Below are positions 10,373 to 13,300 of a stretch of DNA of 32,000 bases, one piece after another. This stretch comes from Verrucomicrobiota bacterium (GTDB taxonomy: Bacteria > Verrucomicrobiota > Verrucomicrobiia > Opitutales > LL51): contig CP095464.1 in the NCBI GenBank assembly GCA_021294815.2, positions 60,001 through 92,000 of the forward strand, in the 5' to 3' direction. Numbering within the stretch: the stretch's first letter is position 1; each line of letters opens with the position of its first letter. The notes under the pieces are model-generated. The model had not been told where the DNA came from, ran no database searches, and saw only the letters and a program-made list of their open reading frames with translations. Made by a program: the position numbers and the translations under genes.

Positions 10373-13300
10373 TTACCGAATATTGGAGTAGATCTGCTTC
10401 CAAACATCGCCAATCGACTTCAACATTTGAGTTGCGAGTGAGGTTGTCTCATTGCAGCGTTGCATCATCCGTTGCATTTTCGTCGTAATAGTCTGACCAT
10501 CGGTCGTAATTTGGTCGACATGGATACGCATATTTTCACTCCAGAGAGAGACCTCATCGGCATTCAGGCCATTCGAGCCATCACCGTAAAGTTTGTTCAA
10601 CACGCGTTTAATCTTGGGCTCCTCTACCCAGCATTGTGTCAGCGTCTTTTTCTCGTATCCTTCGACGTTCTCGTCTTCGGTAAACAGGCCCGGCCCATCG
10701 ATATAAGATTTAATTTGCTTTACATCTTCCTTGCTAAATGTGCGATCACAGCCCAGAAGAGACGCTACCTCTGGGTCAGTCAGTCCATTGAGCGCCTCGA
10801 GGGTTTGAGATTTACTGTTTGCCCCTGCTAAATAGTTAACTGCCAAACCGGTTACAATATCGCCATATACCGAGGCCATCGCTTCGAGCTTGTACATCAA
10901 AATTAACGCGTTATAATCATAGTCTGGTTCTGTTAAATTTTCTTTATAAACACTCTTCTTTGAATAATAAAATTTCTGGTGGGCCATCAGGTCAAAAGCT
11001 TCTACCAATTTTTGATTGGTCCCTGAAGTAAAGTCTCCCGTTGAGGTATCCGAAGCTTTGCCCATCTGTTTAGCAAGATATTTATAGTGCCCTGTTCCGT
11101 TCCAATTATTGGAAATTGGTGCCCAGCTTTTAAGCTCAAAGCCATTTGTTGCGTCGCCATTGGGTTTCTTTTTATTAGAACAAATCCCTTCGATAGTACA
11201 AGGAAACGGCAAAGTCCCTCCTTTCATCTTTTGGAACAATGCTTCCGTGTAAGTTCCTAGTACGGAACGTACCTGCGCGGTATCATCTTCTTTAACAATT
11301 TTATTTCGATTATACCAATAGGCATCAATCAGCTTATTGCCACTACCAGCAGAAAAACTCTTAGTTCCATAAAGATCCGTCTGAGCTCCACTTATACCAA
11401 GTGCTGCCAACTGATAAATTCCCATCGCCACTCCACTGGCGGCTCCAGCAGCAGCCGCTCCTACGCCTATAGCAATTCCTATCCCAGCTGCGATAGCTGC
11501 CTTTGTACCCAATGCACCGAGAAAAGAAAGGGCCCCAATTCCTGCTACTCCTCCCGCAATTCCAAGAGTAGCGACGGTTATCACAGCAATTGCCGCAGCT
11601 GCAATCGCCACAGAAATTGCGGTCAAAGCACCTGCACTTTTCTTTTTTACAGACTTCGCAACGTCACCAAATTTTGCACTGGCATCGTCCGTTAATTCAT
11701 AGGCTTCTTTCAAAGAACCTAATTCTAAAAGGTCGCGGTCGGTTAGATCGCCCAACATGGTGTTTTGGCCAACATCACCACCGTTTTTAAGCTTCCCTTG
11801 AGAAACGTAGGTGAACAGGTTGGAAACATCCGCATGGTTCGACTCGAGGTAACTCATGCGCTTGTTAAAGTTCGAATTTTCGTAGGTCAACAACGAGTTG
11901 TCATCCATGGCATTCGTCGGCATTGTTATGTTGTGCTTTTTGAAGTACATGATGACTTCAGCAGGGATAACGACCTTTGCCTTATCGCCTTGTTTCGCCG
12001 CTTGCGCCTGAACTTTATTTACCTTGGCAAGTTTGGCATTCGCTTCGGCAATCTTTTCGTTATTCTCTTGGATCTCTTTCAAAAGATCAGCCAAGAGATT
12101 CTTTTGCATCGTAAACTTCTCATACAGGATTGCCATCAGACGGAACATCATCCCATAGTGCGAATAGTCGCCGTGCCAGAGCGAATCCGAGCTGATGTAG
12201 ACCGGATCGGAAATGTTATCGACCTTATCTTCGATGAAAATAGGATCACCATTCTTGCCATAACCGTAGATCACACGGTAATACGTACCGCTGCAGGATT
12301 CGAGCTGTTTTTCGGTCAGCGTCCCAGTCACTACCCAAGCACCGTTGAAGTAGGCGTATTCCTTGGGTCTTAACATCAGCAATGAGCGCTGATAAATCTC
12401 AAGTTGCTGTGAGTAGTTGAGCCAATCCTTGAGCTGTTCCAAATACTCATCAAGCGGACCTCCACGGGTGGGGATCGCCTCGATCTTGGTTTTATATTCC
12501 GCGAAATCAATTTCTGCGGCATCATATTTGTCCATAACCTCGTGAATTTCTGAGGACTGAATTTTGTAGAGGTACTGGTCCTGAGTAAATTTGCTGCTAT
12601 CGTAGGGTTCGAAATTAATTACCAAACCAATGTAGGTCTTTTTATCGGCGACATTTTTCTTCCCCAGCCAAGCCCGGAAGTTTTTGATCTTTTGTAATAA
12701 ATCGGCATCCATCTGCCCTGCGAGTTCGCCTTCATCATCGTAAGACGCAATGATCGTATCGATATCGTCGGCAAAGGCATAAAGATCCTCTAAGAGTGCC
12801 GCTTTACGGGATTTGGATACGACCCAATTGAGATGGTCGGCCAAAATTTCGTTAAACCCTTTGCCGGCAATTTTCCGGCGGCGATTATTTTTGACGACCT
12901 CGATCACGTAAACGTCATTAAGGATACCGTCATAGGTCTCGTAACGCTTGAGCTCCTCGACATAGCCGTTGAGCATCGTATCCATCTCCGTGAGGTATTC
13001 CCGGACGCTATCCGATGAAATTAAATTCTTTTCCTCCGAATTTTCGAAGTATGACTGTTTCATGAATTCATTTAGTGTAGCCTGGTAGAGTTCTGCATCG
13101 CGGGAATCGCCTTTCCAGCCCTGATATTCACAAAAGCGCGCATCACGTGCCACACCCCAGGTATCGGCGAGCGATGGGATTGGTGTATCAGAATATTGCG
13201 AACTGCCGTACTCGATAGTTTCTGCGACACGCTGAAAGTCCTTGCGGGCACCACTATTATTGAGTAACATTTCAACTTCGAGACTCACAGCATCAATTCC

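Follow-up and report, generated by a model that had tools for sequence, protein, structure and literature searches.

A giant verrucomicrobial protein ending in an EspA/SseB-related two-helix module with an inserted membrane-type segment, encoded in the SctA slot of a type III secretion operon

The stretch of DNA analysed here, which we name the window, covers 32,000 nucleotides from a Verrucomicrobiota bacterium of the Opitutales (GenBank assembly GCA_021294815.2, contig CP095464.1, positions 60,001 to 92,000), and its minus strand carries a giant open reading frame (ORF), 10373..31978, of which 7,201 amino acid residues (aa), or 804 kDa, are visible. Profile matches and gene order show the C-terminal tail of this protein to be an EspA/SseB-related, needle-like two-helix module, placed in the slot of the tip or filament protein, SctA, of a Ysc-type operon for a T3SS (type III secretion system). 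On the same comparisons the tail is translocon-associated and not homologous to the pore-forming translocators encoded next door, and the hydrophobic block that it contains is an insertion between the two helices of the family, not an inherited transmembrane (TM) domain of a translocator. We hold it to be, on balance, probable that the giant is a secreted tip or filament protein of the SctA type, provided with its own membrane hairpin and with about 6,600 N-terminal residues that form an orphan region.

A sequence-only reading of the window had recognized in the last 600 residues or so of the giant a module made of a hydrophobic helix running into a coiled coil, a Gly/Ala hydrophobic block split by one Lys, a further domain and a terminal helix. 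All of these elements are indeed there: the hydrophobic helix and its coiled coil from aa 6609 onward, about where they had been placed, the block at aa 6781-6867, with 53% Gly+Ala and its single Lys, then about 270 residues and a terminal helix at aa 7140-7200. The limit of the module at some 600 residues is not a boundary in conservation, the similarity to a complete giant homolog, P0009, being unbroken from aa 4895. The C-terminus of the giant is thus laid out as a hydrophobic helix and coiled coil, a membrane-like segment, an insert of about 270 residues and a highly conserved terminal helix, all features given here lying on the minus strand. The first family helix (11897..12190), EspA/SseB-like, has a Met/Leu-rich hydrophobic start, GMMFRLMAILYEKF..., which begins at aa 6609 (window 12154) and runs into a predicted long helix, aa 6610-6666, forming the coiled coil, after which comes the motif GDKAKVVIPAEVIMYF. 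It is followed by the first part of the insertion (11639..11896), about 85 polar residues which end in a Lys-rich stretch (VKKKS) before the hydrophobic block, are found in the giant clade of the family only (alignments A1 and A3), and are modelled by AlphaFold with low confidence. The block itself (11378..11638) is predicted from hydropathy to form one or more membrane hairpins. The second part of the insertion (10568..11377), some 270 residues with the signatures AYWxNR..., KENxTEPDYDYNALILMYKLEA..., LTQCW... and LNKLYGDGS, is likewise conserved within the giant clade only, with a mean column identity of 76% among six giant-clade sequences; in the alignment it stands almost entirely in gaps opposite the short relatives, it has no match in Pfam or the PDB, and AlphaFold is partly confident for core residues 430-500. 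The second family helix (10376..10567), conserved and strictly C-terminal, spans aa 7140-7200 and ends in ...GDVWKQIYSNIR (...KSIGDVWKQIYSNIR); it is the best-matching stretch in 34 distant relatives, and nine columns are invariant across the family.

The kinship with EspA and SseB is carried by the first helix. When the 699-aa tail is searched, the Pfam EspA model PF03433 matches aa 6615-6694 over profile positions 34-113 of 180, with 27.1 bits for a cut-off of 23.4. Four relatives about 55-90% identical to the window protein give EspA matches at the same profile positions, P0001 (24.6 bits) and P0002 (26.2 bits) above the cut-off, P0007 and P0010 below it, at 17.7-18.5 bits, with only positions 29-113 of 180 covered in all; for P0002, as well as for P0003, the match is already precomputed in databases. 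The NCBIfam SseB models (NF052422 / NF011891) recognize the first-helix stretch too (E=1.1e-7 and 2.4e-5), at scores that fall far short of their equivalog cut-offs (31.9 bits vs 155; 24.3 bits vs 350): judged by these profiles the tail is related to SseB, yet it is not an SseB ortholog. In SseB, aa 38-57 are described as hydrophobic and give way immediately to a coiled coil, aa 58-90 (PMC2873485). Given this layout and the matches to PF03433 and to the SseB models, we can understand the hydrophobic helix running into a coiled coil, which had been read as a translocator element, as an EspA/SseB signature.

The second helix tells a fainter story. When 18 family cores were scanned singly against Pfam at E<=1, the commonest match was T3SS_needle_F, present in seven cores, always below the cut-off (best E=5.8e-4), and EspA came second, with three. 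In P0025 and P0047, the two proteins for which positions were reported, the needle match falls on the C-terminal helix, while the terminal helix of P0033 meets the C-terminus of the EspA profile (positions 124-180) with the weak E-value of 0.57. The C-terminal ending of the family, ...K.xGDYxKxIxSNIR, also recalls the ...IIQNFR ends of needle proteins. Taken together, these likenesses suggest a second helix that weakly recalls the C-terminal helices of needle proteins and of EspA.

How far this module extends among living organisms was asked of 1.84 billion representative proteins, and an exhaustive profile search returned 51 hits only. They comprise a giant clade, with the complete P0009 (7,571 aa) and partial sequences of 2,003-4,424 aa, and a short clade of 34 more distant proteins, the full-length ones of 296-1,311 aa; short relatives occur in other Puniceicoccales. 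In most of these distant relatives both the first helix and some 60 residues at the end are matched; in all 34 the better stretch is the terminal helix (profile positions 742-800), and it is always C-terminal. The two helices of the short relatives lie about 100-150 residues apart, with no hydrophobic block between them in the alignments. From the first helix to the C-terminus one counts about 545-590 residues in the giant clade, against about 170-250 in the short relatives, and it follows from this longer span and from alignments A3 and A4 that the block is part of a clade-specific insertion, which on the evidence of these alignments consists of the 85 or so polar residues, the hydrophobic block and the roughly 270 conserved residues. 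A 576-aa Puniceicoccales protein annotated as 'DM13 domain-containing' (P0060) gives a weak match to the core profile (E=8e-7), which may not be genuine.

The block deserves closer scrutiny, and it must be kept in mind that it is called membrane-like from hydropathy only (19-residue Kyte-Doolittle window, threshold 1.6). Its 87 residues form two runs, of 45 and 41 residues, devoid of Asp, Glu, Lys and Arg, with one Lys between them; its Kyte-Doolittle maximum is 2.47, and no other stretch of the 7,201 residues reaches 1.6. The next-longest uncharged run in the giant protein has 25 residues, and only three of 200 shuffles gave even a single uncharged run of 41 or more, so that two such runs side by side are well beyond chance. 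The giants P0007, P0008, P0009 and P0010 each have one hydrophobic segment at the equivalent position, with a hydrophobicity maximum of up to 3.08 in P0007. Indeed, the block is present in all 16 giant-clade sequences with locatable flanks, usually with a main uncharged run of 27-58 residues, replaced by two adjacent runs (45+41 or 41+36) in the window protein and its closest relatives. A Lys-rich stretch precedes it and an acidic one follows it, and many members show a central T-[AG]-G-[GA] turn. Its sequence, its length and its Gly/Ala content (23-53%, highest in the lineage of the window) are not conserved; hydrophobicity being retained while all these vary, selection is acting on hydrophobicity itself, as one expects of a membrane hairpin. 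The idea that the block is a mere flexible Gly/Ala linker was considered and rejected, other members of the clade being hydrophobic with only 23-33% Gly+Ala. In extent the block also corresponds to the bilobed hydrophobic domain of Inc-type proteins (about 40-60 residues), a likeness of form only.

Structure prediction was applied to both kinds of core. For a short relative, whose core of 191 residues was modelled from an alignment of 18 sequences, AlphaFold predicts a pair of long helices, 16-71 and 122-189, that run antiparallel, with a predicted local confidence (pLDDT) of 79.7 and a predicted template modelling score (pTM) of 0.68. The 607-residue core of the window protein gives a model that is poor overall (pLDDT 53), most of the insertion, block included, being of low confidence; its few confident parts include helices 16-72 and 546-606, which correspond to aa 6610-6666 (pLDDT 73-86) and aa 7140-7200 (pLDDT 82-87). 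Among non-significant Foldseek hits, the top three for the short core are the Shigella tip protein IpaD (E=0.26), then flagellin cores and hook-associated proteins, and the EspA filament 7KHW is ranked fifth for the window model (E=1.3). These models fit an axial-protein hairpin; they prove nothing.

The position of the gene is a further argument. In Yersinia and Pseudomonas the order is yopN-tyeA-sycN-yscX-yscY-yscV-lcrR-lcrG-lcrV-lcrH-yopB-yopD, and a comparable order is found elsewhere, as sseB-sscA-sseC-sseD. In the window the operon reads, on the minus strand, giant gene, gene for a 190-aa chaperone, 835-aa gene and 318-aa gene, and wherever the end of the giant gene can be seen, in ten loci, its next neighbour codes for a homolog of the chaperone, and the one after that for a homolog of the 835-aa protein. 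In L013 one reads successively a 377-aa protein, TyeA, SycN (E=3e-5), YscX, SctY (E=1.4e-18), SctV, a 142-aa protein, P0047 (a short relative of 428 aa), a TPR chaperone and a 402-aa SseC-like protein; in L011 the order is SctY (E=4.9e-14), SctV, a 310-aa protein, the 7,571-aa giant, a TPR chaperone, and proteins of 505 and 336 aa, beyond which lie SecG, a LolA-like gene, nth and rluD, housekeeping genes that the window also has, at 610-4650. Because the order in these two loci parallels that of Yersinia and Pseudomonas, the family is seen to occupy the tip/filament slot; as far as gene order can tell, the giant gene is in the SctA slot, after SctV and before an LcrH/SycD chaperone and the translocators. 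In L011 the 22.7-kb gene of the 7,571-aa giant lies on a single ENA scaffold of 756,918 bp, of which it makes up about 3%.

The immediate neighbours are indeed what one expects of such an operon. The 190-aa protein (9756..10328, minus), whose gene starts 44 nt after the stop codon of the giant, is a class II (TPR) translocator chaperone, recognized by TIGR02552 LcrH_SycD with 98.3 bits (E=2.8e-28) and by several TPR families of Pfam. The 835-aa protein (7252..9759, minus; 4-nt overlap with the chaperone gene) is a putative major hydrophobic translocator, whose TM hairpin spans aa 156-195, besides which aa 71-89 are hydrophobic, and whose hydrophobicity maximum is 2.14; its family, of 397-845 aa, keeps the first 300 or so and the last 130 or so residues around a central coiled coil that varies, and weak SseC matches are found in its 505-aa homolog of L011 (E=0.003) and in the 402-aa protein at the same position in L013 (E=1e-4). 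The 318-aa ORF (6369..7325, minus), with a weak match to the C-terminus of Pfam SseC (E=0.002), is a putative minor translocator, probably of 292 aa, with Met27 as its start: its homologs, always found after a homolog of the 835-aa protein, align from about aa 27-36, and under that start it is the 292-aa protein of the sequence-only reading. On the plus strand, the 353-aa protein (5200..6261) has diverged from the 318-aa protein, of which it is a paralog (BLASTP E=6e-11; 97.6% probability by hhalign).

It had been proposed that the tail shares the order of elements of the 835-, 292- and 353-aa proteins, and this is true only loosely, the 318- and 353-aa proteins having no segment that reaches the hydrophobicity threshold. 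Pairwise, BLASTP of the tail against the three proteins gives nothing below E=2.8; by hhalign, the tail family meets the 835 and 318 families with a probability of 0.1-0.9%, where comparing the 318 family with the 353-aa protein, as a control, gives 97.6%; and no translocator family of the SseC/YopB/IpaB type is found on the tail at E<=1 in Pfam and NCBIfam. The profile of the tail family holds the insertion as insert states and so drops its columns, which means that the hydrophobic block itself was compared with the neighbours by BLASTP only. On hydropathy the tail does contain a translocator-type TM hairpin, with its runs of 45 and 41 residues and its maximum of 2.47. The anchor motif of class II chaperones, P/VxLxxP, is absent in the tail and likewise in its three neighbours, and is uninformative. 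By these comparisons the tail is unrelated to the neighbouring hydrophobic translocators.

We must now consider the immense part of the protein that precedes this module. The frame is free of stops up to window base 31999; the N-terminus of the giant therefore lies beyond the edge of the window, and its true start is outside, the TTG at 31978 being the start given by the ORF listing. The complete homolog P0009, of 7,571 residues, is colinear with the window protein, to which it is 41% identical, without a break, from aa 4895 to 7201, and 26-34% identical between aa 1337 and 4741. Since aa 1337 of the giant aligns with aa 2682 of P0009, and in view of the length of the latter, the full-length protein may exceed 7,500 aa. 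No similarity to the otherwise colinear P0009 is detectable in aa 1-1336 (window 27968-31978), and no homolog came up when the first 1,500 visible residues served as query; the N-terminal part seems to be evolving much faster than the C-terminal third. That the giant ORF might be an artefact was examined and rejected, in view of its conservation, its synteny and its open frame in every related locus: in eight of eight related genome loci it is open as far as the start of the locus. These eight loci are all from Verrucomicrobia, mostly metagenome-assembled genomes (MAGs) of termite-gut 'Puniceicoccales bacterium'; the closest database protein, 88% identical, comes from an 'Opitutales bacterium' MAG, the named relatives all belong to Opitutales, Puniceicoccales or Verrucomicrobia, and every named entry of the family goes under 'hypothetical protein'. 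A copy of the module at 1-2225 of the metagenome contig L001 has several in-frame stops, for example after ...SSNMM, with homology continuing in frame; either this copy is in decay or the assembly is error-prone.

The orphan N-terminal region, visible aa 1-6602 (12170..31978, minus), is without recognizable domain, repeat or TM segment. It has no Pfam family at E<=0.01 and no match to PDB sequences at E<=0.1, BLASTP of the giant protein against itself reveals no internal repeat, and none of the 19-residue Kyte-Doolittle windows of the region reaches 1.6. The complete N-termini available, those of P0009 and P0017 (MKINPADYEKGT..., MDRVNPADYLSGT...), are devoid of a hydrophobic core like that of a signal peptide; this absence and that of repeats count against Sec or type I secretion, as far as sequence features can tell. 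A signal region shared by the N-termini of giants and short relatives (an NPF...FY motif) was considered and is not claimed, the sequences being alignable only loosely.

How could such a protein work? If it is a tip or filament protein, the giant would leave by the injectisome as a middle substrate, with its N-terminus in front, and its C-terminal hairpin would dock on the end of the needle or polymerize there, as EspA, needle and tip proteins do. The insertion between the helices, with its hydrophobic hairpin, would then find itself at the distal or outer face, where the hydrophobic hairpin could insert in the membrane of the host or interact with the translocators of 835 and 292 aa, and the N-terminal mass of about 800 kDa might act outside the bacterium as a spacer, an adhesin or an effector. 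In its strongest form this picture makes a single chain of about 830 kDa the tip or filament subunit, the anchor in the host membrane and the payload all at once, exported N-terminus first, held by its hairpin at the needle and inserted by its inter-helix loop in the membrane; so complete a combination is a tentative proposal, which we regard as rather doubtful.

Several observations weigh against an SctA-type protein with its own hairpin. Within a 3,799-aa piece the EspA match falls to 22.8 bits, just below the cut-off, and it covers only profile positions 34-113 of 180, about half. Aligned by hhalign with a single EspA (the sequence identical to PDB 1XOU/7KHW), the family gives a weak result (E=0.012-0.02, probability 2-4%), which pairs EspA residues 64-113, including DKNAKAQLPDEVISYI, with GDKAKVVIPAEVIMYF and leaves the terminal helix unaligned. 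Searching the PDB with the family profile retrieves no entry, EspA included, nor any tip protein, and the tail, used as query by phmmer or as a profile, draws nothing from the PDB either; models of tip proteins (LcrV/IpaD) are absent among the matches of the tail at E<=1 in Pfam and NCBIfam, and Foldseek finds no hit in the PDB at E<=0.001 for either of the two structural models. Known EspA, SseB and LcrV proteins have about 190-330 aa and no TM hairpin, and we know of no T3SS substrate anywhere near 800 kDa. Finally, the window stops short of the N-terminus and of the upstream sctV, so that the slot is seen in L011 and L013, and in another locus, L012 (10001-16032), a 910-aa short relative, P0023, is encoded away from SctV. 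Downstream of P0023 are a 175-aa protein distantly related to the chaperone (BLASTP E=1.2e-7), a 299-aa protein with a faint SseF_SseG match and a 510-aa protein; in some genomes the operon may be kept apart from the genes of the apparatus, or be present as a second copy.

Other explanations must be set beside this one. The giant might be a translocated effector, Inc-like or Tir-like, with its hairpin in the membrane of the host or of a vacuole and its N-terminal region in the host cytosol, the two helices serving in chaperone binding or oligomerization instead of needle docking. Such a fate would suit a block that has the form of a hairpin or bilobed TM domain (main uncharged runs of 27-58 residues between a Lys-rich stretch in front and an acidic one behind, and a central Gly turn), an N-terminal region that is orphan and fast-evolving, as is often the case in effectors, and named relatives that come from termite-gut Puniceicoccales MAGs; T3SS membrane substrates and their protection by chaperones have been reviewed (PMC9993115). 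We nevertheless find it unlikely, the short members keeping the slot and both helices without the block, which suggests an ancestral role of the core other than membrane anchoring. An axial or tip role is likewise favoured by the place in the SctA slot and by the signals of the EspA/SseB and needle kinds, and neither an effector-type domain nor a class I chaperone was identified. The sequence-only reading, for its part, had seen in the tail a fused hydrophobic-translocator module of the SseC/YopB/IpaB kind, which would form or join the pore while carrying a giant payload. In its favour, the tail does belong to a T3SS translocon operon, next to a class II chaperone gene, a hydrophobic helix, a coiled coil and a terminal helix recur in it in the same general arrangement, and its TM-like hairpin is comparable to that of the 835-aa protein or more hydrophobic, with a maximum of 2.47 against 2.14. 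Homology to hydrophobic translocators is what fails: there is no sequence or profile similarity to either neighbouring family in a comparison whose control works, no translocator model at E<=1 and no P/VxLxxP chaperone-anchor motif, and the block is an insertion, variable in length and sequence, within an EspA/SseB-like core. We consider this account very unlikely. Of the related claim that a membrane anchor carries a payload of more than 6,500 aa, a conserved membrane-type segment preceded by more than 6,600 matchless residues is retained, and the translocator-like nature of the anchor is not.

A last possibility has nothing to do with secretion. A giant envelope or cytoplasmic protein could hold its C-terminal segment in the inner membrane of the bacterium itself, its place in the operon reflecting regulation only. 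Export of 7,500 residues through a needle would be unprecedented, and the hydrophobicity of the segment is strong, 2.47 here and up to 3.08 in P0007. The TM segments of T3SS substrates are usually of intermediate hydrophobicity (PMC9993115); the block being above that level, the signal recognition particle might recognize it. Against this scheme, the segment is near the C-terminus, hence late to emerge in translation, and the protein has neither a signal peptide nor another TM segment; the EspA/SseB and needle-like helices speak against it too, as does the tight linkage with chaperone and translocators, kept in ten out of ten loci showing the end of the giant gene. We give it little credence.

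Two further observations concern the surroundings. A 175-aa ORF at 4642-5169 (plus strand), directly upstream of the 353-aa gene, looks by eye like a lipoprotein (LLVGCGSS) with TPR-like helices, and together with the 353-aa gene it could constitute a second, partial translocon set. Farther away, a 202-aa ORF at 2415-3023 (minus strand), with no family match, has a near-duplicate motif close to its end, GSKSPEAAKEKPQ and GSKSPETTKEKPQ.

If the giant is exported as a tip or filament protein, the consequences would be considerable. The largest protein reported as a T3SS substrate is, to our knowledge, the lymphostatin LifA, a claim itself debated. LifA has a mass of 366 kDa (PMC8505758). A chain of about 830 kDa would be more than twice that size, an injectisome handling 7,500 residues would be dealing with by far the largest protein proposed for T3SS export, and the SctA slot would have expanded, within one bacterial order, from about 300 to more than 7,500 residues. 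It would also blur the textbook division between hydrophilic tip or filament proteins and hydrophobic translocators, elements of both kinds being united in one protein. The size series, from 296 to 7,571 residues on a common core, includes at least one short and at least one giant protein in the same slot, and because this natural series shares a core and a slot, the requirements for docking of SctA become directly testable. In the open literature we found neither a T3SS described for Puniceicoccales nor any account of tip or filament proteins of giant size, and the family offers a handle on the host interactions of these gut-associated bacteria, many of them from termite guts.

It is finally worth comparing the giant with systems that are already known. 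In giant flagellins, as in flagellins generally, the terminal helices make the polymerizing core and a variable insert is displayed outside; the extra mass of our giant is mostly before the first helix, instead of between the helices, and no homology of the tail to flagellin was detected, flagellin cores appearing only among non-significant Foldseek hits. With the chlamydial Inc proteins, Tir, SseF/SseG and SteD the giant shares a bilobed or hairpin hydrophobic domain without charge and a presumed export by the injectisome, while it differs in being non-chlamydial, in having this domain C-terminal, within a core like that of axial proteins, and in being more than ten times larger. The translocators SctE and SctB (YopB/YopD, IpaB/IpaC, SseC/SseD, EspD/EspB, chlamydial CopB/CopD) likewise have a TM hairpin of about 40 residues or more, coiled-coil segments and a class II chaperone gene nearby, but their hairpin follows an N-terminal chaperone-binding region, whereas that of the giant lies between EspA-like helices near the C-terminus. 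With the tip proteins LcrV/PcrV and IpaD/SipD/BipD the giant shares a gene position, in a Ysc-type slot (sctV, a small gene, the family gene, an lcrH-like chaperone gene, translocators); their central element is a long antiparallel coiled coil, which the hairpin predicted for the short core may resemble. They are soluble and pentameric proteins of about 300-350 aa, and nothing is known in them that would compare with the hydrophobic hairpin or with so large an N-terminal region. There is also a likeness to EspA, of the filament encoded by the locus of enterocyte effacement (LEE) in Escherichia coli, both enteropathogenic (EPEC) and enterohaemorrhagic (EHEC), and to SseB, of Salmonella pathogenicity island 2 (SPI-2): the first helix matches their models, including the ...AK..(L/I)P.EVI.Y motif, with a hydrophobic stretch and then a coiled coil, as at aa 38-90 of SseB (PMC2873485), the tail too has a second long C-terminal helix, and the gene stands just upstream of those of a class II chaperone and two translocators. 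The differences are that the giant has more than 7,200 aa against about 190-200, that an insertion of about 440 residues with a TM-type hairpin separates its first helix from the conserved C-terminal stretch, and that the operon, unlike those of the LEE and SPI-2, is otherwise Ysc-like (TyeA, SycN, YscX, SctY). What is new here is the very large size, together with the presence, in one and the same protein, of tip-like and apparently membrane-inserting elements.

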